The notes under the pieces are model-generated. The model was not told the DNA's origin and made no database searches. It saw only the letters and a list, made by a program, of their open reading frames with translations. Of a DNA stretch of 64,000 bases, positions 11,145 to 63,658 are shown in pieces. Made by a program: the position numbers and the translations under genes. Source of the DNA: Balanoglossus misakiensis (lineage: Eukaryota; Animalia; Hemichordata); the NCBI GenBank assembly GCA_040954595.2, contig CM082587.2, positions 5,816,206-5,880,205 of the forward strand, read 5' to 3'. Positions within the stretch are counted from its first letter, which is position 1. Each line of letters begins with the position of its first letter.

Positions 11145-14100
11145 TCATTTTATTATCATTGCCTCCATGGGTACCACTTCCTTGTCCTTAACTCGGTATA
11201 TCTCACCATAACCATGACGACCATCCGTTTTTTTCTTTGGTGTCCTGAAATTAACAGAGGTAAATGTGCGGATTATTGTTTTTAGATAAACTTTTTAGTT
11301 TTTGCGGAGGAAAATGTTATATTACACCAACAGACGCAATACGATTGTGAATTTAAACTGTTCTATCGACTAAGGATGAGGAGAAGATTTAAGAATTTTA
11401 TTGATTCAAAATATGCTACAAGTGGCAGCAATTGGGGGACATTAATGAAGTTGACTCACTTTCCGAACCGTTCCCCTTCCTCAAGAGTTTCCGGTAGCCT
11501 CTTTCCGCGCGTTTCCGGTAGAGGCAGGATCAAAATTCCCGCCAAGATGCACGCGGCACCAAACACAACCGGTGGCAGTTTCGCCCAGAGGTTTGCCATC
11601 AGCAGGAGCTGGGGAGCTATGATGCCGCCGAGACGGGCGCACATGGAGCACAGACCAATGCCGACGGACCTGCAAAAAATGGTTCCGTATACTAAAGGCT
11701 TGTGACTGTTGACATAGATGGCTTTATCTGTAGGGCAGATTATGCAAATAACCCGTTCCGCGTCATGGAGGACGGCATAGGCCCGTGTGCAAAGGTCCAC
11801 CACCTGGTTTGGCGTGTGAATTGCCAGACTTCTCAAGTGTTCAGAAATCTGGCAAATTTCGCCGCCATGCAGCTACCCATGATATAAAATGAAGTTGACA
11901 CACGGTAGAAAAATATGGATAATAATAGCCAACAGTTAAGTTACTGGGGCTTTAACACTCACCTTAATGGGGTGGGGAATAGTTCAGCCGAGTAGACATA
12001 CACCATCCCAAAGGAACAAGTGACTGAAAATTTGCTGACAGTGGCCAGTGTTATTCCTATCCAAACAGTATCGCCACCTTGATAAAAATGAAGGATGCTT
12101 TCATCATATTTTGAAGGGCGTTTTGAGCAAAAATCATGATACAATGTAGTATATAATTACAAAACTTTGAAAAGGCAGTGGTGGTATATGTATACGGAAG
12201 GCATGATTGTTAATGTTCAATCGGCCTACTGAAAGTCAAAGCAGTCTAAAAGTTTTGGGGGATGTCAAAAGTAGGCTTACAAAGATGAACGAATGCTTCG
12301 GTCAAAGTAGAAAACGTGTAGACGTAAATTCTAGATTTACAATCATTGACAGCATACATATCTCTGATAACCAGAAGCCTACATCCTAACGTATATTACA
12401 ACTGACGAGGCCGGACAAGTGCGGCGTCTGTTATACTTACACGGGGGCACAAATGCGGCGCAGATACACGCAATCCCGCCGATCACCATTGTATAGAACA
12501 TCGACCAACGACGGCCAAGTCTCCGCCAGTCCATAATGAAAACGCCCAAAAGGTAGGCTGGAATTTCAACAGCGCCCGCTACAAAACAGTTGATGTAGTC
12601 GTTGCCGCCGAGGTTGGAAGTGTTGAACGCAAGACCGTAGTAGACAAGGGTGTTAACAAACCTGTATAAGAATCAAATACGCGAGATTGGAATTTAAAGG
12701 GCGATAATCGTCTTGTGCGCATGTGCTAAACCAGAGACTCTGGTTACACAAAATGCATACAGTCAATGCCATAAGGCAGCGTCCTCCTTCTCCTTCAATG
12801 TATATTTACCAGTTATAAAACAGTATAAGAGTCTTCTTTCTCATGTTTGGCAGACGGAAGAGATCAAGGAAACTTGCTTCTTTCTGATTTCCTTTCTGGG
12901 ACTCCTGCAAAACGCACAGAATAATCATTTGTGCATAAGAAATACATATGGCACATGAAACCCCTATCTGACAAAATCAATGCATTGAATCCAATGGATT
13001 GTCTTTGGATAAGATAAACTTTTGGCACGATTTAGCCGTGACATTACAAGATTGCAATTCGCCGGTTTTAAATTGACAGAGACAGAGAAAAACTTGCGTA
13101 TTTCAAGTCGTTTTGGATGAAAAAAATGGAACATACCACTTTGCCGCTCACGGTCTTTTTAAGGGGGTTCCACTGTTCACTGAAGATGTCATCTGGAACC
13201 GGCACCTTGTTGACACGTCCACACTTTCTGATTATTCGCTCGGCCTCTTCGTTTCTCCCGACAGAAAGTAGCCATCTTGGTGACTCCGGGACAAGCCTTT
13301 AGGAAAACCACGTACAGGAAAAGCTTAAAAGTACAGAAATATTTCAGCCAAAGAAAACAGATTCTCACAGCCTCTTGTAGTTTGTTATCCTGGGCTGGTT
13401 TGGTGCTGATCTGACCTTTTCTTTGAATTTATTATGAGTGAGGATTCTAATACTAGTACTTAAGACCCCAGGATCGTAAACAATGAACACCTAAAACACG
13501 GTGATAACAGCGCCCCCTGGAGCATCGGGTTTCAAGGTTACAATAGGTGCAAGGCATGCTGGGTGTGGACGGCGGCCATATTTGGCGTTACACGTGGTGG
13601 CGTGTCACAAGTATAGATGTGATGCCGATCACCGAGAGAACTTTAAGTCATGCCCGGAACACAACACTCTGGCGCTGGAACAGCCTTATTTGTTTGTTTA
13701 AAAAGGTGACTTGTATTCCAACTTACCACCAGTATGACAAAAAGAGAATGGCTGGAACTGTTAGTACCAGTTGCAAAACTTGCCAATCTCGTATCAAGTA
13801 GCCATATAAAGCCAGCAACATGTACCCAACTCCAAAAAACATCGAATACGCCATTCCTGCCACCGTTCTCTTTGACGGCCCAACCATTTCAGTGGCTGAT
13901 ATAAAAGAAAAAACACGACAGGGAGATTTACTTTGTGCCATATGACGATAATTTCTAAACATCTGCTTTCATCATGCTTAAGAAATAAAAAAAATATTTT
14001 CTTTCAAAGTTCTATTGGACGATTCACGCGAAATTGAGAAAATGTCGACGTTATTCCTCCTTTACGGACGAAAACGTGGAATCTCCTGAATTATAAGAAA

Positions 14101-15279
14101 ACGTAAACATGATTGGCACATTACCTAATACAAATCCCGCCAAATAGGCGCCAAAGGCTGTGCAAGCCACACAGAGTCGACCAATGGCGAACACCCAGTA
14201 ATTCGGAGCAAAGGCAGTTATCACTCCAAAAACAACCTCCAGCGCGACGCAAATCAGAAAACCTCGTTTGCGACCAAACCTTCGGAAACGAGAGTGAAAA
14301 TTAGTGACCACATATTAGCATTAAGGTTAGATTCAAGTATCAGTATTTTGTAAATATTACAAAAGTGAAATAACGGTTTCTTACTTGTCTAGAACATTTC
14401 CAAAGACAAAGGACCCGATTAGGAATCCCAACATGTAGAACGAGGAAGCCAGTGCGCCCAGGTATTCATCGTCACACACCAGATCGAACTGCCAAAAAAT
14501 AAAATTTAAATTGATGTACAGTGTGATATCATGTTTTGAATTGCATTGCTTTGTCAAGTTTTTTATTCTTTGCTGCGTGTGTCTGTGTACCGAGTGTGCG
14601 TGATCTGGTATCGTGCACACGCTATGCAAGTGGATGGCGTTTAGAATGGCAACATCTAATTCAGTACGCATGAACACGTCTTTTGGGGGGATGGGGGTGT
14701 GGGGTTGGTAAACCAGTCTCTCCTAGCATAGCGAGCGAAGTTCGTCTTGGTGTCCACCGATTTATAGGACAACAATCACCAGAAACAATTGAAATATTGT
14801 TTTCTGTGACAAGAGACCAGATAATATATTAAACGGCTTACCTGTTGAAACACCGTCGATTTGTACTGTGATCTGTCGTACTCCCACCCATGGTCACACT
14901 TTATTATCGTGTCATTTCTGTGCGGCAGCGTGCCCTGTTCGAAGGAGTACACTATGTCCTGGTGACTGACGTTGTATCGGTAGCACTGGCTGAAGGTCGA
15001 CGTGGCGCCGCAGCCGTTGTCCGTCTGCGCCCTTGGAATGGTCAGGTTCTTCACCAGCTCCTCGCAGTCGGCCGTGACGTTGGCGAGACAGATCTGCGCG
15101 CCGCTGTCGGCGGAACCCGGCACTCGGCACCAGGCGTCGGTGGTGGCGAGCAGGAAGACGGGGGCTATGGCGTGCAACGCGGCGGGGATGGCCCACATCC
15201 CCATGAGGATATAGACCCTGATTTGGTACTTGCCAAATTCCCCCAGGATGTGCTTCAAAACGTCATCGAAGTGCAACAT
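11145..15279 (-). CDS. SLC22-family (MFS) organic cation transporter-like protein, 10 coding exons
   Basis: Exons 15279-14842, 14488-14385, 14279-14125, 13895-13727, 13296-13137, 12904-12810, 12661-12441, 12077-11963, 11669-11460, 11244-11145, all GT-AG with consistent phases. SLC22 hallmarks: [19 protein letters not shown] start, Cys-rich first extracellular loop, [51 protein letters not shown]. Confidence 0.95.
12694..12747 (+). repeat. Short dispersed repeat (intronic MITE-like fragment)
   Basis: TTAAAGGG...ATCGTCTT.TGCGCA.GTGC.AAACCAGAGACTCTGGTTACA is shared with 39684-39737. Confidence 0.8.
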
Positions 15280-17618
15280 TTTGGCTGGAAGAAGGAGAAA
15301 AACCGGAGAAGATACTGGGTGTCATGTTTCTCAATAGTTTCCTTGTGTGAACGACACCTGTGAGGGAATTGATGTGTGAGTGGTATCTGGGAACACAAAG
15401 GGTACCTGAGAAATTATAAATCGGGTCTGGCATCACTGGGCCGGCAGAATCCTAAGGGGTCTCTATTTTAACAACCACGAGGTACCTACCGTGGGATAGG
15501 ATAGACTGTCATTGTTTAACTGTTCGTATGCAACACAATGTCATGATATGCTTGACCAATTCACTGTGCTGGCATACAGTGTCCGAGTTAGAATCCGTAC
15601 AAAAACATTATGCCTTTTTCGCAAGCCTTGGTAGATGTTAACGCTGGCCCGAGTCGTGCATGATAAAAGCTTGTAGAAAGCACGAGTGATCTATCTCCCT
15701 GCCTGCCTGCTTACCCGTCTGTCTGTACCCCTTCCAATCACCTTTTCAGGCACACTTGCATTTTAGGACAACTGATGAAATTTTACTGGGACACAAAACA
15801 GATATTATATGTACAATATGATCTACTTTGCTTTCAAAACTCGTGGATATGCAAACGCACTGCCACACCTTAGTTGGTCAGGGGTATAAATAGCCGTATG
15901 TAGTGTGCATGTACAATAGCAGTTCTTCTGGGGAGCACATGGGGCCTACGCCTAATGTTGATCTTGACGGAACATGTTGGCCTACTAGTGATTTCATTTG
16001 TCCGAAAATTTTACCCTCTGTGAACAACTCCATTATCAGAAAAAGGGCACAAATAGAGTAGAAAAAAATCTTGACGTAGAAAATTTGGTACCACACATGC
16101 AAACTGCTCGAAAAAGTCATTGGAATTTGGAACTGCCACAGCTGCCACCTGTAGAGTGTCCCACATATACCAGGTGCACTGTATCAAACAGTCAAACAAG
16201 AAATGAATACAGCGTAAAAATCCAGCAGTTGGCTTCCAGGCACCCCATGCAAGTTGCAGCGTTTACATGCACCCTGAAGGCGACGGTGTTCATCATGTTC
16301 ATTGACCATATACCCACGCCGCACCCCATTTTGCTGGGGATACAAGTCGCAGGCGGCCCGGTTGTAAACGACAGTAACCCACAAAAAGTATGTTAGATGA
16401 GATTTACCTTAAAATTGACCGACAGTCTCGTCAGCAAGTGCCACTTCACGCAAGATGGCTCCCCTTTTAATGCAAATACACACAGTTCATCGTTTAGTCT
16501 ACTTCTGGTACTATATAAAGACCATTCAAGCCGAGGTCATTGGAATTATGCATACAGATTAGTACTTTGGGTAACAAAGGGATATACTCCCGGTGCTGCA
16601 GAGAGTGAGCGACTGACGTTGCGCTAACTTTTTTTTAGCCGATTGCACTTTCTATTTTGAGAAGTCTGTAATCGATACACAAAACAGTTGTTTTCAGTAG
16701 CTGTCTCCGAACAGTGTGTTAAATCGATAAAAATTGACAATGGTTGGGCACTTGAGGGAACAGTGCTGCGTAATTGTACCTTTTGGTTGCCTTTCCTGTA
16801 TAACTTTCTCTGATGTACCTTGTTTTTATGGCAATCCCCGCACAATGCTTAACCTGTATTACTGTCAACATAACATGCAAATGCATTGCTGCCAGTGTTA
16901 AGTGTCGATAAACTATAAGAATACAAGCCTATGCGTGCGTGACAGTCCCTCTATCCATAGTCAGTGACTGTGTGCTCTATCAATGGCAGTACTGGCTGAC
17001 GAGCTGAATGCCAGGTATTCATTCTTTAACGGTGCCAGTGAAGAGAATATACGTTGTCAATGAGATTAGCATCGCGACCACTTCCACTTTCATTGGTGCA
17101 TTTGCATTTGGCACCGTCGTTACAGCTAAAAATATCTTGAGTTGTTTGGACCAACTTCATTTTTTCTAAAGTAAAGTTGGGCCTCCATAGTAGTAATTGG
17201 GGTGAAAAGGGTTAGGCTTTCGCTTGGTGGAGGACGGTTGTGCAGCTACGGGAATCGGCTATGCCGTTTCGTGTTCGTCTCTTGTGGCCATGTGACTGTT
17301 AACAGAACATGGATGGGAACGTACATGTACATGTATATGACCTCAATACCTGTAAACGGACAGTGGCAATTAATTTTATTAATAGTTTAATTTATAATAG
17401 CATTTTTTATCCTCCCTTAAGCGCAACGAAACAAACCGGTAGCTGCAATAATTGTAGTCCGGGAGGGGGGGGGGGTAAGGGTTAGGTCAAACTGACTGAC
17501 CGACCCTTCCCTGACGGCCCAAGGCTACACTCATCGCAGCTAAATAAATCACCACTGGACTGGCACTCCCCAGCATGACAAGTTTTCCTGGGCAATGTAC
17601 CCAGTTATTGTTGATAAC

Positions 17619-18947: not shown

Positions 18948-28576
<9,629 letters not shown>

Positions 28577-35000: not shown

Positions 35001-38000
35001 CCGACCAAAGACACTCACTGGTGACTGAAAGAAATTAACCATAAAACATGCAAGAGTATAGGGCTGACTCAGAGAAATTTCTAGAAATCCTCAAATTGAC
35101 TGTAAGCTTTTAAAAATTATGTTTGTTAGAGGGCACACTGGTATCGACTACCGGTATCTAAAATTTTAATTCATACTTGCAGATGGAATTGAACAGACTG
35201 TTACAGACAAGCCAAATACTATCTTATACATACTTTAAAGATCAAAAATTGAACTTCCGTACACTGAACAAATATTTGCAAAAATAACCATAAATTACTG
35301 CTGCTGTTCCTAAACCTTCCTTTTCAAACTACAAAGTATACCCTTACCGGTTTCTCAGAAATACACACATCGTTGTAGTCATCTGTACGTGTAGTTCTGT
35401 TTTGTCGGTGGTCAATTTTTGAGCCTCCTGCCTTTCGCCCGACAGGAACAAAAGCGTCGCCAGGCGATGGAGCTGGAACGCATGCTGGAAGAACACCAGA
35501 GGGAACAGGCGGAGATCATCTCCAACGCGGAGAAACAGAGAGGGAATATCCTTAATGCAATCGCCGAGGTAAGGATGGCGGGCACAGGAATGGGTGAACT
35601 GACAGCTTGGTGGCTGGAGAGAGAATCTTTCACTTCACACGATGTCATCTTCTCTGGTTGAGAGAAAAGTTTTTTTAAAGTCCTAATAGCTGCCTCTTAT
35701 AGGCTAGAATCACTTTTCATTTGAAATCTGTAAATTTTGATGCGAATACTTCTCTGTGTGTTCCCGAGAAAAATCATTGAATCAGAGTGCAGCAATTGAA
35801 AGGAAAATATGAAATGTGTCCCCTCATCAATTATTAGTCAGAGTCAGAGACTATGCATATTGCTTATCTCTTCTCTCTCATCTCCACAGGATCAGGAACG
35901 TATGGACAAAGGAATCAAGTCCCAAGTTGAGAAGAGTCACCAAGAACAGAAACAGCTTGTATCAACTCTGTATCAAGGTATTTAAAGCCCTAAGAGCTGG
36001 GTACCTTTGTGCATTATTTTTCAGATTTTTACTTTCTGGTCCATCCAGGCAGAATTCTGTGACCGGGTCTGGACAGTTTTGCATATTAAAAAGAAAGGGA
36101 AAGGAAACTGATCACTGAGGGCGCTCACACCTGTCGTTATTTTGCAGCGGAAAAGAATTCCCACGAACTGATGAACCAGCTTTTAGTCATGAATGAAAAG
36201 TAAGTATGGGCGGACAATGAACTGTACGCATTCCTACTCACAAAACACAAAGTTTCGATAATCTAAATATTCCAAATGTCCGTTGATCAAAGTCAATGAT
36301 ATGATCATCATGGAATGAAATAGTTACGCTGTGTTTTAACTTTGGAATACTGTAACCAGAAGATTTGAAAAGCCCAAGTGACTCATGAAGTCATATTGAA
36401 TCATGCATGAAATGGCCAGTTTGACCCGGTGTGGACAAACAGGCATGCACGTGGCTGACACTAAACACGCTTTTTGTAACTTGTATCACAGGGCCCGCAA
36501 GACAGAAGAATTGCTGGAAATAATGGAAAGAGAAAGGTATTGTTTTTGTTACCTGGTTTTATCTTGCAAACTTGTTTTTTCCATTGGTCCATTATTCTAG
36601 TTCCAGTCCCTTAATATTTGAACTCTTGGCGTCGATTTGCCTACTCATGTAAAGTGGTCTGTTTGTTTCTACCAACAGTGAGTGTCTGGTGATAAATTTT
36701 TGTAGAAGGATTGTTATGGTATTTTTTGCTTTTCAATGCACCCTTTAGTGTGCTTGTATTTCGTGTAATTATTTCTGCGAAAACCTTGTCAATGAAGTTA
36801 TTCATCTTCTAATTTCAGAATGGAACTGGATGAAACGTTCAATATCGCCTACGAGGAACACAACAATCTCAGGGAAAAAGATGTTCTGGGTGAGTTATAA
36901 AAAACGAAAGCAGTTCTCATCATGACTTGTGAGGCCGCTGTACTATACTCGACAAAAGTTTCATGGCGTGACATTGGCTCATTAGTAATGGTCAGCAGTA
37001 CTTTCACTTAAAGTGTGTTTAGTAACTTTACCTCTGTTCTTAGAAGAAACAATATTTTATCACACACACATACAAACTCAAAAAGCATTTTCTTGGGAGA
37101 AATTTTCAACTAAAACGTACTCCTTTGACTCAAAAACACACATGCACTTAATGCTTCTTTGTGCTTCCTCTGTCCATCAGAATCCATGCAAGTTGTGTTG
37201 ACCGAGAACTTCAACCTGGAACTCTTGCGCCAGGCCTACGAGGCTCACAAGGAAGAGATTGTGAGGACCACACAAGTAGCGTAAGTAACGCCCCCAAGAA
37301 ATAAACCCAGACAGGTACAGAGCGAGTGTTTTCTGAACCTGCGGCTCTTGGTGGAAAACAAAAGCTTTTTCCTGAACTCTGTTTTAATTTTACTCACATT
37401 GCACCATATTTATGAATTTTTCCCCTTTCTCTATCTTCGTACAGTGAGAGCAACAATGCGGAGAAATTGGAACTTTTGCTCAGTGCCAAGGATATGAACA
37501 ACGACGCCCTCATGAAACAGCTGATGAAAGACGTGAGCATAAACTCAGTTATCCATTTCCCTTTCGCTTCCTCAGTTCAGTTCAGGTCTTGCTCATTTCC
37601 CAGTTTCTGCAGTGTTCCTACCACTTAAGAAATTTCTGGAGAAAAAAAATCTCCTAATGTAGAGTTTTTCTCAGTAAAAGTTGTAAAGTTGTCACCAGAC
37701 CACTTTCGTCGTTCTTTTTCATATTGCGTAAATCTTCCAGCGTTTTCCCAATGTAATTTGTCCTTCTGGTGTTTTGCAACAGGAAAAATTCCAAATGGAA
37801 GCGTTTGAGGCTCTGCAGCTGGAGAAGGATGCCAAGAATCAACGTATCACAGCTCAGGTAATGATGACATATGGTGCGGTTTGGTGGGCTTTGTTATTGT
37901 CAGTGCTACACTGTTGTTTTGTGTTGTCTCTGCAACTGGTCATACTCTTGTAATATTTGACCTGTGAACTTTCACTGTGAATGCATAATGACTGCAATTT

Positions 38001-39938
38001 CTTTGCCACTGCAGATTGAACTGATCGAACAACAGCTGGCCGACCTGTCGATGTTGGAACTGGACAAGAAGAACGAGAAGGCCGAGGCCGAGAGCAACAT
38101 CCTGGAGCAGCGACGAATCGAGCTCTGCAAGATGCTGATCCAGCTGATGGATGAGCAGGAGAGGAGACAGATAGAACTGAAGAAGAGATTGGTAAGTTTG
38201 TCATCAAGGCAAAGTTCACCGGCCGTAGCAAATCCTGCGACTCGTGTGGGACAAAAAAAATCCCGGACTCGTGTGAGAAATATGATCCCATGTCCTTGGG
38301 AGTGTGAGATTCTATTATTCACAATAATCTCTGTCCCTTGTCAAATTTCTGTTTGCACCACTGTAGAGTGTTTTAGAAGTAGATGCGCACACTGGCCTTT
38401 CAACAAGATCTCTTGAATCCGATGTATACGAGCCATTTTGAATCCTCATTTTGTTTAAATATGAGCAAAAAAAATCATGATTACAAGACTCTGTTCTTGG
38501 TGCTTCGTTGATCAAAAATCAGCATGGCATACACAAAATGCGTCTTTATGAAATGGAAAACCAACATCCCGCAGTCTTACAGGGTGGAAATGCCACTGAC
38601 ATCTGCCAACGTTTCACAGCATCCGAGGCTCTAATCTGTCTCACTCCATCTTCTTCACAGCTTGAAATGGAGAGGAAGAGAGAGGATGACGCCGTCGACT
38701 ACTGGCTTGTGCAGTACCAGAGACTCCTCGATCAGAAACCACATCATCTAATTGATCGGGTAAGGCCTGCTGGAACATCCTTTTTTCGAGATGTGGATTT
38801 TGCGAAGTGTTATGTGCTCGGGGGACTTGCTTGCTACGTGAAATTGATGCAGTAGGTCTGGGTTCAAATCCTTGTAAAATACAGGTCGATACCAATGTCG
38901 GTGAAAAAGTTCAAAAATATCTTGTGATTGTCTTCCCAGGAACATGGCATGGAGATCGCCGTCTTGAGTATTCTGCGCAAGGCCAAAGCGGAAGACTATG
39001 TTCCGAATTTTTCACGGCACCGGGTTTCCATCGAGACGCTGGTTGTCATGACAGAACAGGATCTAACAATTGTAAGTACCTGTACTGATCTGTGAGTTAT
39101 TTTTTATGAGTGTGTCTTGCATAATTAAGGAGCATTTTAATATAGTTCATTTCAGTCGATAGAAAACTATTTCAAGAATAACAAACCAAATCTGAAATTT
39201 GGTAGCAATATGGTCACAAGAAAATATGAAAACACTGTTTGTGAAATTATTTTATGAAATGATTTTGAATGTGCATATATGATGGTCTCGTGTGATATGC
39301 AAATAAAAGTATCAAAGTTGTTGCCAGTTTACAGTTATGTGAAAATCAAGAATGGAGGTAAAATTGCGATTGTCTTAATATCCACTACAGATGGGCGTGC
39401 ATGAGGTTGGATTGCGCAAGGCAATCCTGCTGGCCATCGATGACTATCTGACTCAACAGAAGAAGGAGTCCAAACTCAAGGAGGAGGACGATGACACGAA
39501 AGTGCGGCCACCATCGGCGCCGCCCGTGCCAGCCCCTGCCGAGCCGTCGGCTCCCGCTGAAGAGATCAACGCGTTTGTCAACGCCGAGTGCGTTGTCTGC
39601 ATGGAGAGGATGGTAAGTTCTTTATCTAATTGCAAATTTGTTAAAGCCATCAGTGGTAAGGATTTGGAAGAGTAGCCGTGTGGTTAAAGGGAAACGATCG
39701 TCTTATGCGCACGTGCCAAACCAGAGACTCTGGTTACAACAAAGGGCCACATAAGGTCATTAAACATGTATTCCCTTAACTCATGTGCCTTCACATTCTG
39801 ATCTATTCACAGTCGAGTATGGTCTTCATGCCGTGCGGACACGTCTGTTGCTGCTACGAGTGTGCCGGTCCCATCGACCAGTGCCCCATGTGCCGCGCCC
39901 GGCTCACCATGAAAGTCATCCTGAACAAGCAGGGCTGA
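29075..39938 (+). CDS. LRSAM1: E3 ubiquitin ligase LRSAM1 (LRR, coiled coil, SAM, PSAP, RING); about 21 coding exons
   Basis: Exon 29075-29140 MPLFGHRQSAEGKKRQEHSIYV; 32806-32859 AKESPEPTFAVSNCELTE; VPSGVFSLCKVLRKE; LRRs (ILDLHQNEFHELPDEIG); DYWLVQYQRLLDQKP; SAM (MGVHEVGLRKAIL); two PSAP motifs; RING CVVC...PCGHVCCCYEC...CPMCR; TGA 39936-39938. Confidence 0.96.
30031..30092. repeat. 28-bp tandem duplication with internal palindrome
   Basis: TTAGATAAT(A/T)TCTAATCCTTACAGAG occurs twice in LRSAM1 intron 1. Confidence 0.8.
39684..39779 (+). mobile_element. About 95-bp MITE-like element in the last LRSAM1 intron
   Basis: TTAAAGGGAA...TTCCCTTAA termini; the 5' half is shared with 12694-12747, including the hairpin AACCAGAG-A-CTCTGGTT. 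Confidence 0.6.
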
Positions 39939-45900: not shown

Positions 45901-46347
45901 TTTTCGCGTGTGCCACCCACTGAGAATCTGTGATACTGATTGGCTATATTTCAGTTTTCCATTTTCCATGCACACGCCCCCACACCACGAACTATGGAAG
46001 TGCCATCTTCCAGTCAGGATCGCTTTCCGTGGAATATCGTTTTGTTAACTCATTCAACAAACGCTCGACCATATTACAGACTCTAACCTCAAATAAGATC
46101 ACATCAAGTAAGGAGACTCCGCCTCTCAATGGTGAGATCACGTCGCACTAGCATAGCACCTGCGATTCATTCATCACTGATACTCACTGATCGCCTAGAT
46201 ACCGAAGAAGTCTTTCGTCGTTCTCCACTGGGGCCGTTACTCATTGCGAGAATTCAGCGCCAGCGAGAAATTCCTCCTGTGGGTTACGTATACTCACGAC
46301 TGATCGTTACTCGTATCGTATTCACGCATGTGGAAGACGGCACCGGC

Positions 46348-47391
46348 ATGGCAAATCTGACTGACGGCGACGAAGACGGCTCGTTCCTGCCCCACTCCCT
46401 GGTGGAAAAGACGCTGACGATCTCGTGGGGCGTGATCGGCATCGTCGGCATGGTCGCCAACGCTTTCGTGATATTCATTTTCCTCCGCGTTCCCTCCCTG
46501 CGCTCCATCACCAACCTCTTTCTGATGCACCAGTCGCTGCTGGACTGCGTCAGCAGCGCCATCCTGGTGGCGGTGAAGTTCATCCCCGTCCGGTGGCCGC
46601 TTCGCCTCGGCGCCTTCAACGACTTCGTCTGCAAGGTCTGGGTGTCCGAGTACATCGTGATGAGCCTCGTGGTGGCGTCCACCCTGAACTTGATCTGCGT
46701 GTCGTTCGAGCGGTACTTCGCCATCGTCCACCCGATCATGCACAGGAACCGGCTGACGGAGACGAAGGCCAGGGTGGTGATGGTCTTCGTGTGGGTGCTG
46801 GGCTACAGCGTGGAGTTGGTGTGGCTGGTGGTCCCCCGCGCCGACGACGGCGGCTACTGCTCCATGGTGTGGCCAAGTGCCACGTACCAGACCTTCTCCG
46901 GCGTCTACTTCTTCACCCTCATGTTCGCGCTGCCCGTCGCCCTGATGACGTACGCCTACCTGAGGATCTTCCTGTCGCTGCGGCAGAAGAACCCGGTGCT
47001 CGGCGCCCAGACGGCGGCCAACAGCGGCAGGGCCGCCACCATGACCAAGGCCAGCCGGAACGTCATCAAGACGCTGGCCATGGTGTTCGCCGCCTACGTC
47101 TGCTGCTGGCTGCCGCAGCAGACGATGTTCTTCATGTTCACCGTCGGACTGCCCGTCGACCTCGCCGGCAACGCCTTCAACGTGGCCATGGTTCTGGTCA
47201 ACTGCAACATGCTCGTCAACCCCTTCATCTACGCGTTCCAGTACCGCCAGTTCATCCAGGGCGTCAAAAAGACCTGTGGCTGGCGGGGCCCCGCCGTCGC
47301 GCCACACGGAGCGGCCCCGAGCAACTCAAGACAAGGACTGACCACCGGAACAACCTTAAGAAGTAACACAGTGTCAACGTCTAACATATGA
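46348..47391 (+). CDS. Intronless orphan class A (rhodopsin-like) GPCR, peptide-receptor-like
   Basis: ATG 46348 in good context (GGCATGG), N-glycosylation sequon NLT, seven hydrophobic segments, TM1 AN, TM2 HQSLLD, TM3 Cys and SFERYFAIVHP, TM4 W, TM6 CCWLP, TM7 NPFIY. Strong GC3 bias begins near this ATG rather than at 46129. Confidence 0.93.
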   Translation: MANLTDGDEDGSFLPHSLVEKTLTISWGVIGIVGMVANAFVIFIFLRVPSLRSITNLFLMHQSLLDCVSSAILVAVKFIPVRWPLRLGAFNDFVCKVWVSEYIVMSLVVASTLNLICVSFERYFAIVHPIMHRNRLTETKARVVMVFVWVLGYSVELVWLVVPRADDGGYCSMVWPSATYQTFSGVYFFTLMFALPVALMTYAYLRIFLSLRQKNPVLGAQTAANSGRAATMTKASRNVIKTLAMVFAAYVCCWLPQQTMFFMFTVGLPVDLAGNAFNVAMVLVNCNMLVNPFIYAFQYRQFIQGVKKTCGWRGPAVAPHGAAPSNSRQGLTTGTTLRSNTVSTSNI

Positions 47392-55438: not shown

Positions 55439-56239
55439 GAACAATAAACTGAGCCATATTAATGCAAATATTGAATATTCACATTTACCATAATTACACT
55501 TATAAACGAAATCCACACGCCCTGTCTGTGTCGACATGTACTAAAACCTTGCTTGTGTGACCCCAACAATTTGTCAAAACGGCAAAAGCAAACACGGGCA
55601 TTGCGAGTCAATCCTGACAATCTGCATTCGACGAAGTTTTTTGTTTTGTTTTCTGAACAGATACATGCATTTTATTCTGTTGTCTATGTATGCATAAACA
55701 TCACAGCGGTTTAGGAAAACAAATGACAACGACTTTGAAATTCACCACAGAGTTTTCTGTTTGAGAGCTCTTTTTAGCACATCAGTCAAGTCCAACCAGC
55801 AAGTGAATTGCGGTTGGCAGGGACGCAACTTTATGTTAAATCAAATCGGGGGTGCTAGTATTTTGTACGGCGCCAAGCAGTGGCAACAGACCCCATACTT
55901 TTGTTTTCATACAGTACGGTAGCCTGTTGAAATTGACTGTGATTAGGGCACAGCTCAATGACTTTGGGGTACCATGTAATGTGGCAATCTGCAATAACAC
56001 AGGAAACAACGATCTGATCGCTAACAATTCAACAGAAGTGGACAATTTATGCATGGAACAAAACGGCAAAAACAGCAACACTGCCACATCAGCAGTATCT
56101 CTTGTCATAGAGTGAGAAAGCATTAAATTAATCCATGGTTTATTTCAGAAAAAAGAAATAATGAGCAAAATCCAACTGAAATGTCTGATTTTGGCAATAA
56201 ACTTCTTTTACAGAGAGTTGTTGTCCGGACGCGGCAAGG

Positions 56240-59200
56240 CTACTGCGACACCGCTGCAGCCGCTGCAGCAGACTGGCCGTGCTCTGCTTCAGGGTCCGCG
56301 GGCCTCGGCCTGGTTTCGTCCACTTTGCTGCAGTGGATTTTGAAGGCCGGGGTCACCCAGGTCGCGCACGAACACTGGTCACCTGAGGAAGGAAGCAACA
56401 AACAAACATACCAATTACCATTAAGTGGTGGTGGTGGGGGGCGGGGAGGTAAATTGCGCCGAAACTCAAAATACAAGGATGTTATTTTAAAGCCTCCATA
56501 GCGTAAGAATCATCCATGTTCTAACATTTATACTTTTGTTGTAATTTGAATAAATATGACAGGCATATCATTACCAGAGAGTCTGTGAAGAATTCTCACC
56601 TGCCCAGTTGAAAGAACCCAGTCTCGAGTTACACTTGGGACACATCAGCTGTGAACCGAAACAGATAAAAGAAGATGTACAATCCTATCACTTACAAACA
56701 GAAGATCTGTCAGAGAAGACGATCCCCTTCAGCTTTGGAGAGATCAAAGTAGCCATTCCAGATCAAATCCAACAACTGGGTGTTACCAAGGGCGGTCAGG
56801 GCGGCCATTTTGTTAACCTTTGACACATGACCCACAGTGACCTACAAAATCACCCCGAGTATTTTCATGCCCTAACAGCACGTTATACGGAAACCAATTT
56901 GTCGTGTACTATGCTTGTGGCTTACAGCGGTTATTCGTAGACACTAGACATCAGGAGAAGAGATGACTTGTAGACTACGTACCTTTCCTCCTAGCCTTCC
57001 CATGAGAATCGGTTCCATCCAGGCCACCGGCTCCACAAACATGGACGTGCACGTCACTTGAGTTGGGAACTGCGACCGCCCCGATTTGGACTTGAAGATG
57101 CGCGAACCCTTGCCGACGGCGTGTTTGATGACACTGGTCCCCTTGACGACAGCCCTCCGACACATCTTGCATTTGTAAATGACTTGCGACGGATCTGCCT
57201 CCGTTTGCTGGGGGTCCTTTGCAAGGCAGTGGGAAAACGAGTCATCGTACATCTGCCTCTCTGCAGAAAAAAAAACATTGAAATGGTCTAACACCTTAAG
57301 TAAATCTTAAATATTAATCTTTTTTGATAAAAAAGTTCTTACTACACACTGCTCAAAATAAATGACATTAAATTTCACTTACGAAGTACTATTTTGGCCG
57401 TCTTTTCCAGCTTGAACTGTTTGTACATGGGATCATCCTTGAAATCTTTCTTGCATCCCATGGCTTCAAACAACCTCAGCTGTTCCATAAATCCGTGGTT
57501 CGGTCTGTAACACAATAGTCAGTAATCTATAATTCGAGCAAATGGTGATATTCAGTCGATGGCCGGCTCATGCAAACAGGTACTCAAAGAAGTCCATGCG
57601 AGGAAGTTAGAACACAAACAATTTTTAATTTATTCGGCATGTTAATATGGTCATTTTTTCGCCAACATTCAATCGCTGGGTACCGTGCATTGTCTATGTA
57701 TATTGGCCACCTCTACCTCTGAATGTACATGTCCGTCTGTCACGTCCGTCTATTGGTGTGTCTTTATCGGTAACCACCTGCTTTAACCCAGATGTTCAAT
57801 GGATGACTTGATACATGGACACTTACTATGATGAGAGTTGAATGTGTCATGACAATGGGAAAGAGGAAGGATTAGATTTGCCAGTTTTGTAATGAATGTC
57901 TCTTTCAGGCTTGCTTGATCTAGATATATATTTGTCAACAAACACCACAAGAACATAATAACATTAATAACTTTGTACAATTGACAAAAATAATTTCTCC
58001 TGTTTTATCAAGCCTGCTGAGACGGATACACCGTTATCACCTATGTGCGGTGCCCCTTAATGTCTTTAAGTTTCCTTCACCAGTGTTCCCCTTTAAACAA
58101 ATATCTCCATGGTAACAGATTATGAACGTATATACACCACACAGATGCCTACCCTGAATCAGAATGAATCTGTCGAACGAACTGTAGCGTGTCGTCGGCG
58201 GGTTTTTTGTCTTTGCTCATTAAATATGCAACAATAATAGTGGCACTCCTTGACATCCCCATGAAGCTGCATGCAAACACGTACACATAAAAACAACACA
58301 AACAAGGGGGATAAAAATGAAATAATAACAAAAATTGGTGATGGGTTCACTAGAAAATGTGACGTCATTTCATCAAGTTTGATATGACCCAATGCGGCAA
58401 ATCCTTTTATTAAAATATTTTGATCAAAATTTCAAATGAGTGTTTCAGGTGTTACAATTAGAAACAAGTTTTAAAATTTCTTGACAAAAAAAGAACCTGT
58501 GAATTAGACCGTTTACCGGCAAGTCAGATCAAGATTGATAAAATGTTAAAGATTTCATGTCGACCTTTGACCAGAATATGTCAAAGGTCAACATGAGTCA
58601 GAGGTCGGTTGGTTAATAACAGACAAGTTTCGATTTTCACTTTCGCTGTTTGTACACTGATTTCAATCTCCATAGTTTGGTCCATTTTTGTGAATTTTTT
58701 TTTATTTAAAAAAAAATTCTGGCATGAAGGCAAGGACCAGTGCTGGGAGATCAGGGAAAGAAAACAGGAAAAGAGAAAATCGGAAACTCAGCATCTGTGG
58801 GAAGTATTAGTGAGAGAGAGAGGGAGAGAGGAAAGCCTACCCAACTCTGGGTCTGATCCGTTTGACTTGCGACAGAGTTTCGTCCAATTTGGCGAATTCT
58901 TTTCGCATGATGTGGGCAATGACTATAGTGGCACTCCTGGAAGCACCCATCATGCTGCAGTGATCAAAAGAATCGGCAGTCCTTTTAGTGTCATCATCCG
59001 AACAGAATTGTTTTTGTTGTTGTTGTGTGTTACGCCTACCCCCCCCCCCCCCCTGAACAAATCTGGATTCTAAATAGCATGTCTTTCCAATGACCATGTT
59101 TTTGTGTGTGGCCACTCAAGTGAAAATCAGTGACTGGGTAGATCTCAATTTTCCATGGTGTGTCTGTAGCTAAATTTGCATGCCTCAGATCCTCTTACAA

Positions 59201-60710
59201 GAAAAACAAGACAAAGTCCACCTGATCACTTCAATATCATTTACTGTCCCTTCACAGTATTTTTCGGAAACACATTAGCATTCGTTCCATCGCGCATATT
59301 AGTATTCCGCTGGGTGTTGGGCTTGAGACGACGACGGAGTGTGAATGCGAGATCGGTCACGTCACAGGAAGTGGAGACTGCCCTCGCGCATACAAATCAG
59401 GCCATGGATCCTGATGAACCCGAATGCAGGACAAGTGAATTAGAACACGACACAGAACAGCGTGACAAGCGAGGCAGGAAAGTCCTCATAAATCACACTG
59501 TACACTATCGGGCAGTGTCAAGATTAATATCAGAAAACATTATTTTTACAACATTATTTTTGCTATTGTGATAACTGAATTTAAGACGTAAATTCAGTTA
59601 GTAATAATGTATCAACGATAAAAATATCCCTATTTATATGAATATGTTCATAAGCCATAAATATTGCTGGGTAGAACAATAGGCTCCAGGGAACTGGAGC
59701 TTGTATTTGACGCGCTCAGCAGAATTAGGTGAAAAATTACTCTCACGGTCCCTCAAACACAGCTAAGTGGTATCTACCCTATCTGACGTACCATCTCAAA
59801 AGAATACAGCTATTTTTGGCAGCCGACCTTTCGAGAATACTCAGAGGGCCATCTGTCAATGTGGAAGGAAGAAGAATTGTGATTTATAAAGACATTTCAC
59901 TAACGATCGGCGAGAGAGTGGTTAAGAGATCTGATGGTTGTCATTTGTCCTACGTAATCCTTTTTAACTCTATCAACATGAACCGACTGCGATGCTAGGA
60001 TACGCTGTGGTACTGGATTGGGGGAGGGGGCCAAGACTTGCATGAACTAGTTTTGGCTTGTTAATTGATGCACAATAGGAGGGGGGACCCAGGAAGAATT
60101 GTCAAGCAGCTCTATAAGCCAATACTAGTAAATAACTACAGGCAAATACAGAAAGGCTGCCCTCTTGAGATGGCAAATGTGCTACTCACATCAATAACTA
60201 ATCCGCTTAAGCTTGATACCATCAGTTCATAATACTAAATCAAACCCTGAGATAATTACCTTTTTTGTCAGCAAGTTTTGGCATATCATTATAAATATTA
60301 CATTAAACTGATCATATTATTGTACTTTGATTATCTTTCTCTTGTACTTGCCATACACAAATATACAATGTCAGTATACAAGGATACAAACAGATTTCAT
60401 AGAGTGGGACATGTGACACAAGCAGCCCCTCCCCCCCCTCTCCTGACACACGTGCTTACCAATGGACCAGTACTCCTCCCTTTCGCACGCCCTCCTCCAC
60501 AAAGTCCAAGCACTCGGGGAAGTGGCTAAGTATGTCTTCATTGGGGACATCGGAAACTTTGACGAAGTTGTACTTGAAATCTACGCTCCTGATTTCCAAC
60601 GGTTCGTACTCTAGCGTCAAGATGTGAGTGATGTTGGCCGCCTTCAGCGCCTCCACGTCGTAGGCGTCCGCTCGGCAGCCGATGTACAGACCCGGTCTGA
60701 TTTTGTGCAT
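56240..60710 (-). CDS. DUSP12: Dual-specificity phosphatase DUSP12/YVH1 (DSP domain + C-terminal Zn-binding domain) with duplicated exon 2
   Basis: Exons 60710-60460 (MHKIRPGLYIG...GGVLVH-TG), 58954-58841 or 58266-58153, 57504-57383 (PNHGFMEQLRLFEAMG), 57260-56983 (YKCKMCRR...H...CTSMFVEPVAWM), 56648-56600 (LMCPKCNSRLGSFNWAG), 56382-56240 (QCSCATWVTPAFKIHCSKVD). This is the YVH1-type Zn domain. Confidence 0.95.
58153..58266 (-). CDS. DUSP12: DUSP12 alternative exon 2B (P-loop C-FMGMSRS)
   Basis: 114 nt, CAG acceptor, GG|GTAGGC donor, phase 2-2, open frame FMGMSRSATIIVAYLMSKDKKPADDTLQFVRQIHSDSG. Confidence 0.85.
58841..58954 (-). CDS. DUSP12: DUSP12 alternative exon 2A (P-loop C-MMGASRS)
   Basis: 114 nt, CAG acceptor, GG|GTAGGC donor, phase 2-2, open frame MMGASRSATIVIAHIMRKEFAKLDETLSQVKRIRPRVG. 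Confidence 0.85.
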
Positions 60711-61600
60711 GGTGGTTTTCTCAAAGAATCAGCAAGAAGAAACGTTCTCGTCTGGTTGGAATTCCCCCCTTTGTTACGCGGCGTCTAAGTGACGGCGTCG
60801 ATCTATCAGCGAGGCCCTGACATGGAAATGGTAAGGTTCACGAAGGGTTTCAGAGGCGGCCGAAAAACTCGGTAAGGTTGCCCCGTGCCGCAAGCAAGAC
60901 CAACCCACGGTACCCGTCACTCGAACACGCGTCGTACGGACGATCGGCGCCCCGTCGGCAGACGGTACAAGTGGTATCTACTGTTCTTGCAGACAAGAAT
61001 TTAAGTTCCCAAGCGCGGTCTTCACAATCTTGCGAAACGGCATCTTTCCTGAATTTCAATTTCAGAACCTTGAGCAATCCAAGCGAATGATCGCTGCCAT
61101 CATGAATAACGGACACCCTAGCTTGTTAATCAAGAGTTTCAACAATACGCCCTCTCCCACTATATACTTCGATACTTCTGTTTTCACAGAAATTAAAACC
61201 TTGACTAACTCTACTGATGAAGGAAATGGGATGGATGCATATGCACGTTATTTCAGAAACACCTGGTTTTGTTGTTTGCCGCGGTTACTAGCCACAACAC
61301 GACTTAACTACAGCTTGCATACCGATTTATCGTCGTGACTGGATTTGCAGGGAAGAGTGCAGTGCACGTGTTTTTTGTTTACTTCCGGTAATGCTGTCTT
61401 CCGGTAGAGAGCCTTCTGGGTTGACCGTGCAACTGAATGGAGTGAGTTGCTAGTGCTTTCGCAAGATCTGACAAAAATAACAGGTTTGTTGTAACACTCT
61501 GTCGACAGCATTGATAAAATGATAGCCTTCGCTCACATGGTGATGTTCTTTCTCTCTAAAACGTGGAGTTATCTGACACAGGCCAAAGATGGTAAGTAGA
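60711..61600. promoter_or_regulatory. Divergent promoter region DUSP12 / EXD3
   Basis: CpG-rich 60770-60965; plus-strand donor consensus GTAAGG at 60831 and 60872 and GTAAGT at 61592; ETS-type ACTTCCGG at 61381 and TCTTCCGG at 61397. Confidence 0.5.
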
Positions 61601-62078
61601 ATATCCGACGCGCCCCGCCCCCGGATGTGATTGAAGTTTACAGGTGTCACCATGGAGCCCCCCTCAAGCTCGAAAGTATTAAATGCGCGGTGTTGTGTTT
61701 TTGCCGTCGATATTTATCACTCGACGCAGGTGTACCGTGACGAATGCAGTCAGTGTGATCATGAATTTTCACGTTAATGGTGTGGTCTTAGCTGCAATAT
61801 TGTAGCCTTCGTGGGATGGTGGTGGTGGGGGGGGGGGGGGGGGATGTGGAACTTTAGTGGGTGACCCAACCAACCCACCAAGGCTACAGTTATTGCAGCT
61901 AGTGTGCCCCAAACCAACACATTCTCCAATGTACCCCCTCTCAAACCAACTCAGCCCAGATCATCTGCCCAAATTTATCACATATTCAATTCTGTACAAA
62001 AGTTTCTCAGAACACAACAAAACTTTTCTTCTAAAACTTTTAGATAGAAATGTCGAAGTAGAGGAATGTGGTGTTGTC

Positions 62079-63658
62079 ATGGAAACAAATGAGAGCTTCA
62101 GTCAAGGGAGTGCAAGAGACGATCCTCTGATGAGCCAACCAACAAAACACGCAGAGAGTACAACCTCAGTCTCGCCAGAGTTTCTGCATCAACTTGAGGC
62201 CAGGCAAGTGGAAAGAATCGAACAAACCGCCTCGCTACAGGCCAAGTCCACGAGACCCAGTGACGGGACACCTGTGGTGCATTCTGCGAGCACCGATGGG
62301 GCAACGATGCAAGACGAGGAATTCAGAAAAGAGCGCTGTCTGGAGAAGATGCAGACAGCGTGGAGCAAGACAGATCGGACAATGGTTGCATCTCTTCTGG
62401 CGGAAGGTCTCAGGAACGCTGAAAACCCGTTTAGCTTTGTCTTGTACCTGGTGCAGAACAGCGGTGATGTCACGGGTAATAAGAAGAAAGCAGACTGCCT
62501 GGCACTGGTCGTCATCAAGGAATTCGATATGTGGCTTCACAGACATGGGAAAGAATTACAGGTATGCAAGCCAGGCCCAGTTAAGGTAGAATGGAACTTG
62601 AAAAACCTATTGTCATTGTGCTTGATTAATTCAAGGTCAGGAAGTTTTAAAAACATTCTCACTTGACACAGTATTTATCCCCTATGAGGCCAGGGAACTT
62701 GTCCAGATCTGCTATGGACTCTCGCTGCTGATAACAAGTTGTTGTACATTCAATACTCAGAAAGCCAATATTCTTTTAACACCGGACACCAAGCTTCAAG
62801 CCCTGAACGTCGGAAGTCGACTCCACCCAAGCATATTTGAGAGCATCGTAAAAATTTACAAATTGGCCGAGGAAGGAAATGAATTCCTCTTGCCATATGT
62901 GAACAAGTTGCTCAGAAAACACCTTTATAAGGAGGTAAGTGTGATCGAGTTCAGATTGGATCTTTGTTATTGTGACTGCAGAATGCCAAGGTGATTGCGC
63001 AATGCGTGATTTGAGGCACATGAATATTCACCATTGATAATTAGTCATCATCATCATCATTGTTGTCATCTTTATCAGGTGATGATGATGGTGATGTCGA
63101 TAATGATGGTGATGATGATAATGATGATTATGATAATGATGGTGATGATGATGATGACTACGATGATGATGATAAAGATGATGATGATGATGGCTATGAT
63201 GATGATGATTATGATGACAATGATGATCATGATTATGATGACAATGATGATGATGATGATGACGAGGACAACAACGACAATGATTGTTAAATGCCACTGC
63301 TGTGTCATTCTTGTAGAAGTTATAAACGTTCTTCTGCCTTTCCTTTCATTACACAGACGGCGAATTGTGTGGCGAAGTTGAATTTACAACACTGTTTCTC
63401 ACTGAAAGAGGTACGTCATCGACAGGATGGTTTTAATATATTTTTTATTTGATTGATATTTAGACAAATTGGGGTCAGTGATTCCAGTGTACAAATCTCA
63501 ATTTTTTGTCTCACCCAGATCGTGCTGCCCCTGATCTACCAAGACAAGGCCAATCTGGCCGAACGCTATTTACATGGCTGTAAGGATCTGCAGCTCTCCC
63601 TGGTTAAGGTGCTGGACACCTACTGCGAAAAAGGTTTTGACATGGATAAAGTTCTCGA
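62079..63658 (+). CDS. EXD3: EXD3 / Mut-7 / Nibbler 3'-5' exonuclease homolog, 5' part only (continues beyond the window)
   Basis: Exons about 62079-62561, 62761-62934 (KLQALNVG...LLRKHLYKE), 63357-63410 (TANCVAKLNLQ), 63519-63658 (IVLPLIYQDKANLAERYLHGCKDLQLSLVKVLDTYCEKGFD). The last resembles the recalled human EXD3 segment PLLLQDKVALVERY...DSWCQPGFD. The start codon is uncertain and the nuclease domain is not in the window. Confidence 0.85.
63045..63285. repeat. (CAT)n/(GAT)n trinucleotide microsatellite in EXD3 intron
   Basis: Directly visible; explains the poly-M/D/H/I ORFs. Confidence 0.97.

Follow-up and report, generated by a model that had tools for sequence, protein, structure and literature searches.

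Among the described cases in which one phosphatase gene yields alternative enzymes, the closest to the locus analysed here are ACP1 and DUSP13. Exons 3 and 4 of ACP1, which encodes the cysteine-based phosphatase LMW-PTP, are described as mutually exclusive (PMC3785452, PMC4465641), and these homologous alternative exons give rise to two isoforms of the same length, known as fast and slow (PMC3785452); the alternative exon listed for this gene spans 114 nt and 38 aa and comes after the C-x5-R loop, which belongs to the part of the protein that both isoforms share (PMC8373072). DUSP13 produces two dual-specificity phosphatases with different loops from one gene, in this case by a swap of the whole protein (PMC8373072). 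Homologous exon substitutions derived from tandem duplication, including those of PKM, KHK and MAPK14, involve adjacent exons of the same phase that are ancient and preserve the fold. A human catalogue describes 236 such substitutions, and its supplement holds no match for DUSP12 (PMC8373072); nine events are reported in which exon switches touch catalytic sites (PMC7954323). DUSP12/YVH1 proteins combine a DSP domain with a C-terminal zinc domain. Their role at the ribosome is explained by the zinc domain, and the sources consulted describe what the phosphatase domain does as unknown (10.1101/444414, PMC9404827); the yeast protein can release Mrt4 with its zinc domain alone, a step for which the phosphatase domain is dispensable (PMC9404827, 10.1101/444414).

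The DUSP12 gene of the acorn worm Balanoglossus misakiensis contains two versions of the exon that encodes the catalytic loop, here called A and B. Judged by sequence comparison, the feature is real and ancient and behaves as pairs of homologous mutually exclusive exons do. It shares with the ACP1 pair the cysteine-based enzyme, the homologous alternative exons and the equal length of the two isoforms, and with PKM, KHK and MAPK14 the adjacent, phase-matched, ancient and fold-preserving exons. In contrast to ACP1, the protein belongs to another fold class, and the loop, together with the final base of the catalytic Cys codon, lies within the swapped exon; in contrast to DUSP13, the exchange changes 38 residues, with the flanks and the zinc domain shared. 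Unlike homologous exon pairs in general, the event is seemingly limited to one lineage, and co-inclusion of both exons is annotated. What sets it apart, as read from the exons, is the exchange of the signature loop itself. No earlier description of alternative loop exons in DUSP12 was found in the literature searched, which took in few subscription papers; the isoforms themselves are already in RefSeq as automatic models.

Organization of the gene and its paired exons

The gene lies on the minus strand of the window (the whole 64-kb stretch of DNA analysed) and has seven coding exons including both A and B. Coding exon 1 (60460..60710) contributes 83 codons, including that of the general acid D54, and the TG of the Cys84 codon; it ends with CAT TG followed by gtaagc, and the split codon of the catalytic Cys is completed by the C supplied by either A or B. 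Exon 2A (58841..58954, 114 nt) encodes, after this final base, the loop MMGASR, two helices and the tail RIRPRV, and exon 2B (58153..58266, also 114 nt) encodes the loop FMGMSR, a KDKK patch and two helices. The two are separated by an intron of 574 nt (58267..58840), read from the sequence as GT-AG. Their borders are identical, with tgcag before the C at the acceptor and GG before gtaggc at the donor, and their phase is the same; splicing from either donor to the acceptor of exon 3 (junction 57504) keeps the frame. Exon 3 (57383..57504, 122 nt) carries the PNHGF helix that ends the phosphatase domain, exon 4 (56983..57260, 278 nt) the linker and the start of the zinc-binding domain, exon 5 (56600..56648, 49 nt) a further part of this domain, and the coding part of exon 6 up to the stop codon (56240..56382) its end. 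With exon 5 at 56648-56600, splicing of A only or B only gives 318 aa in each case and inclusion of both gives 356 aa in frame; skipping both joins TG to an A, and the reading frame of the B. misakiensis gene stops at codon 84.

A and B are identical at 59 of 114 nt and 17 of 38 aa, share a 14-nt core and contain no stop. Each matches Pfam DSPc on its own, at positions 81-116 (E 7.7e-8) for A and 82-114 (E 1.4e-8) for B. A profile of the segment, run against all six frames of the 64-kb window, matches at these two places only, and a tblastn search of the window with the A+B protein of Ptychodera places each remaining exon at a single site. The pair thus has the arrangement of homologous mutually exclusive exons, being adjacent in one gene and equal in phase and length. 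The synonymous divergence between the two is near saturation (pS 0.70), pN amounts to 0.23 in codons 1-16 and 0.59 in codons 17-37, and the intron flanks, compared over 100 nt per side, match at 23/100 and 31/100 positions; because of this near-saturated divergence and the unrelated flanking introns, an old exon duplication is indicated and not an assembly duplicate. What an earlier note on this DNA had reported of the layout is confirmed throughout: exon 1 ending within the Cys codon, two 114-nt exons of the same phase and donor that each complete TGC, a shared core, intact stop-free loops, and the remaining exons present in single copy.

An Rfam search of window positions 55500-61500 gave no match. 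The surrounding coding exons presumably belong to an SLC22-type transporter (11456-15321, minus), a SKI2-type helicase (19249-27123, minus), an LRSAM1-like RING protein (37961-39675, plus) and an intronless GPCR (46087-47391, plus), and those at 61806-62666 (plus) look like part of a gene that starts head to head with DUSP12.

Distribution and age of the duplication

A search with exon 1 yielded six proteins out of 36 candidates, all of them from acorn worms, with Ptychodera flava as the nearest relative found (77 of 83 residues identical), in keeping with a probable place of the gene's bearer among the ptychoderids. Both A and B are present in all four acorn worms compared, namely B. misakiensis and three others, the latter representing one family each and thereby three sampled families in all. 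In P. flava, the four RefSeq isoforms correspond to A+B (X1, 357 aa), B (X2, 319 aa), A (X3, 319 aa) and neither (X4, 281 aa). Glandiceps talaboti has a single model of 354 aa with A+B, and Saccoglossus kowalevskii has two records of 316 aa, one with A (XP_077866103.1) and one with B (XP_006817535.1), which are identical at 290 of 316 residues and have all 26 differences within residues 85-122. The XP_ records of the relatives are computed models, of a kind whose splice variants would rest on aligned transcripts.

Over the 37 residues encoded by the exon, identity among the four species is 20-30/37 between copies of A, 19-30/37 between copies of B and 12-17/37 between A and B. Sixteen of these positions are invariant in A and 16 in B; fixed differences between the two are found at +1 (M/F) and +19 (E/D), numbered from the Cys, and the residues used at +4 and at eight further positions are disjoint. 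Comparison of B. misakiensis with its three relatives gives identities for A/B of 81/81%, 68/59% and 54/51%, and for exon 4 of 75, 62 and 57%, A and B being conserved at about the level of exon 4 in these acorn worms. Neither exon has decayed in the three other species, which supports the core of the earlier interpretation.

Beyond acorn worms the segment is typically present once. The DUSP12 zinc motif occurs in 235 of the 271 proteins compared, and in these the segment is single in 218, absent from 14 and double in three, the last group consisting of two hemichordate A+B models and one algal protein with two whole domains; a tandem segment copy is found only in the two hemichordate models among the 235, in which respect they are unlike other DUSP12/YVH1 proteins. 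The algal DUSP12-like protein has both of its whole DSP domains ahead of the zinc motif, and another protein has two identical segment copies, perhaps through a model error. One version each is present in the annotated records of 11 echinoderm species, in seven amphioxus records and in Acropora, and vertebrate records likewise show one copy, these counts being of annotated records, in which a two-exon gene can show one exon per record as it does in Saccoglossus. A metagenome scan gave one distant locus, which was left out of the comparisons.

The exon border at the Cys codon is common to acorn worms, fish, frog and coral. In Trachinotus, Spea and Acropora there are short isoforms from which these 38 residues, and no others, are missing, with the Cys codon split at the identical point; because they drop precisely that block, the catalytic-loop exon is ancestral to DUSP12. 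Such in-frame, loop-exon-skipping isoforms, annotated in fish, frog, coral and Ptychodera, have an intact zinc domain and a phosphatase that is predicted to be dead. Scored against a profile of outgroup segments (183 kept, with 45 of 228 left out for different spacing), B reaches 55-59 bits and A 40-50 bits. In a tree built from the 37 columns, the four A rows form one group at 89/77 and B is not resolved as a clade. Harrimaniidae branch outside the sister families Ptychoderidae and Spengelidae, and the divergence of Ptychodera from Schizocardium is reported to be more than 370 million years old (PMC11175523). Since the copies group by type, A with A and B with B, a single old duplication ahead of the family split is the simplest reading of the sequences; it likely preceded the split of the three sampled families, which would make it more than 370 million years old, and it appears confined to acorn worms. 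Derivation of A from another DUSP gene is not favoured, as A shares the xMG loop with echinoderm DUSP12 and the 14-nt core and donor with B.

Consequences of the exchange for the phosphatase domain

Both single-exon frames contain the HCx5R loop of a DSP domain, and the general acid expected of DUSP12/YVH1, D54, is invariant in a 120-row alignment. Pfam DSPc matches the A and B isoforms of P. flava with 94 and 93 bits, respectively (cut-off 33.5). The zinc-binding domain is recognizable by near-invariant Cys/His columns, with which exons 4-6 of the window agree, and the best sequence match in the PDB is yeast Yvh1 (E 7.8e-43), the alignment to 6n8m extending to residue 294. In the predicted fold of the P. 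flava A isoform (pLDDT 92.4), the swapped exon corresponds to the loop and to helices 90-103 and 107-117, and the model matches human DUSP12 (4ki9, TM 0.90 by target) and DUSP19. An AlphaFold model of the A+B form, made from an alignment of only 8 rows, has a pLDDT of 41.7, too low to be informative.

A and B both keep the Cys, Gly at +3, Ser at +5 and Arg at +6, and D54 lies in the constant exon 1. As far as the alignments tell, the switch affects two positions of the loop, +1 and +4, and both helices that follow it, not the catalytic residues, so that the label 'active-site switch', previously given to the locus, is an overstatement. Position +1 is M in every A and F in every B of the four species, and +4 is Ala in all copies of A, a residue found there in just 4 of 183 outgroup segments, and M, V or I in copies of B. 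Side chains of the loop shape the pocket and its depth. Further along the segment, the tail RIRPRV is invariant in A, and the net charge over positions +28 to +37 is +4 in A and between 0 and +2 in B; this tail sits just before the PNxGF motif, where R is present in 78 and P in 94 of the 183 outgroup segments. B has its own invariant patch, KDKK, at +18 to +21. Among 287 proteins, the patches of A (RIRPRV, MMGASR) and B (KDKK, F at +1) are absent elsewhere, save for FMG.SR in one. Exon A of Glandiceps has Gly in place of Ser at +7, after the catalytic Arg (loop at residues 84-92 of the model), as does one of the 183 outgroup segments, and catalysis may be weakened in this copy. Helix 4 of MKP7 binds JNK1 via D268 and K275 (PMC4802042). 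These residues map to +24 and +31 of the swapped segment, which are similar in A and B, and the known MKP7-type contacts would for this reason not distinguish the two; neighbouring positions do differ. A and B are predicted to have the same chemistry and different substrate-binding surfaces.

Exon choice and competing explanations

Single-exon models, A alone and B alone, exist in RefSeq for P. flava and Saccoglossus, all of them computed. A+B models, in which the two exons co-occur, are annotated in two of three relatives (P. flava X1 and Glandiceps); together with the open A+B frame and the 574-nt intron, this speaks against the term 'mutually exclusive' used in the earlier note, lowering the case for strict exclusivity and leaving the statement that the pair works like one. 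Three standard mechanisms of exclusion were considered and rejected: steric exclusion, because the 574-nt intron is long enough for A-to-B splicing; decay of a frameshifted co-included form, because A+B is in frame; and spliceosome mismatch, because the A and B donors are both of the identical GT type.

RNA helices are predicted between 59050-59032 and 58838-58820, covering the A donor, and between 58807-58790 and 58149-58132, covering the B donor. Compared with a Markov null, they are equalled in 0/100 (A) and 1/100 (B) cases, against 17-81/100 for the four constitutive donors; compared with real genomic stretches, they are not significant (6/156 and 18/156, respectively), and pairing over the donors may be taken as a lead only. 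At 59052-59032 (minus), about 15 consecutive G lead into GGGTAGGC, an octamer identical to the A and B donors that is found just three times in the 64 kb, each time at DUSP12; the copy after the G run is possibly a decoy donor or due to chance, and the run is predicted to pair with a CU tract downstream of the A donor. A third exon copy at this additional GGGTAGGC (59041) was rejected, as neither the profile nor blastn gave a match. A branch-point-like CTAAT and the acceptor-like TTCCCACAG are found at 58810-58795 (minus), 46 nt past the A donor; exon 1 joined to TTCCCACAG would hit a stop, and this region also takes part in the predicted pairing over the B donor. Within the A-B intron, three strong stems are predicted (58555-58596; 58523-58545 with 58366-58388; 58625-58651 with 58762-58789), which would cut its effective length, and one of them may be a small repeat element.

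We consider it probable that the 114-nt loop exon was duplicated in tandem and that splicing takes one copy in most mRNAs, yielding two 318-aa phosphatases with the same predicted chemistry and a different substrate-contact surface. Exon 1 supplies TG and either copy the C that completes Cys84; in this model, the choice would arise because the acceptors of A and B compete, under regulation, for the donor of exon 1, and exclusion would be leaky, as A+B and skip forms are annotated. B would be nearer to the ancestral exon, A having gained new constraints (Ala at +4 and the invariant RIRPRV ahead of PNxGF), and the swap would retune the pocket rim and the helix-4 face on a constant zinc domain. 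Because the yeast zinc domain alone achieves Mrt4 release, the ribosome role would be untouched. The earlier idea of one gene making two phosphatases on the same zinc domain is upheld by the models of relatives that use each exon alone; its other half, different activities or substrates, is at the level of prediction. Only tentatively, and with some reserve, can the fuller proposal be put forward that a regulated splice switch, kept for more than 370 million years in acorn worms, exchanges the catalytic loop and a substrate-docking helix of DUSP12, so that the one zinc domain that binds the ribosome is combined with either of two enzymes acting on different substrates, or with a catalytically dead form; this would be the first switch of a C-x5-R loop inside a single tyrosine-phosphatase domain.

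It is unlikely that A and B are instead independent cassettes giving a four-way set (A, B, A+B and neither), in which co-included and skipped forms would lower phosphatase activity with the zinc domain kept. All four models are annotated in P. flava and A+B only in Glandiceps, the A+B form is in frame across a 574-nt intron, and the annotation of fish, frog and coral likewise includes skip forms; however, the skip form of the B. misakiensis gene meets a stop at codon 84, A+B puts 38 additional residues within the phosphatase domain, and its second loop begins with Gly rather than Cys, yet the G, S, R and S of the B loop are invariant, a conservation as if catalytic that fits use of B alone. 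The chances seem slimmer again that one of the copies, more probably A, has little activity or acts as an adaptor and that the switch turns catalysis on or off without changing the substrate: the greater distance of A from the DUSP12 profile, its rare Ala at +4, the Gly that Glandiceps has at +7 and the basic tail (net +4), which is invariant and resembles a binding patch, would fit this, but A keeps an intact C-x5-R in each of the four species, followed by Ser in three of them, retains the R-P ahead of PNxGF that most outgroup DUSP12s have, and is modelled as a complete DSP domain. The same catalytic residues in both copies might mean that A and B are redundant, each surviving only because splicing uses it so frequently that losing it would be harmful; this is quite improbable given that each has its own invariant patch in four species. 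An assembly artefact or decayed pseudo-exon deserves almost no credence and is effectively refuted by the saturated synonymous divergence, the unrelated flanks and the presence of both copies in gene models of three independent genomes.

On the preferred reading of one copy per mRNA, the signature loop of a class I cysteine phosphatase would join the protein parts exchanged by homologous exon switching, and the A and B isoforms, which differ at 21 of 318 residues, would provide a matched natural pair for substrate trapping. The exon pair is a candidate shared character of acorn worms, and the retention of two differently constrained loop versions by one lineage indicates that the phosphatase surface of DUSP12 is under selection.
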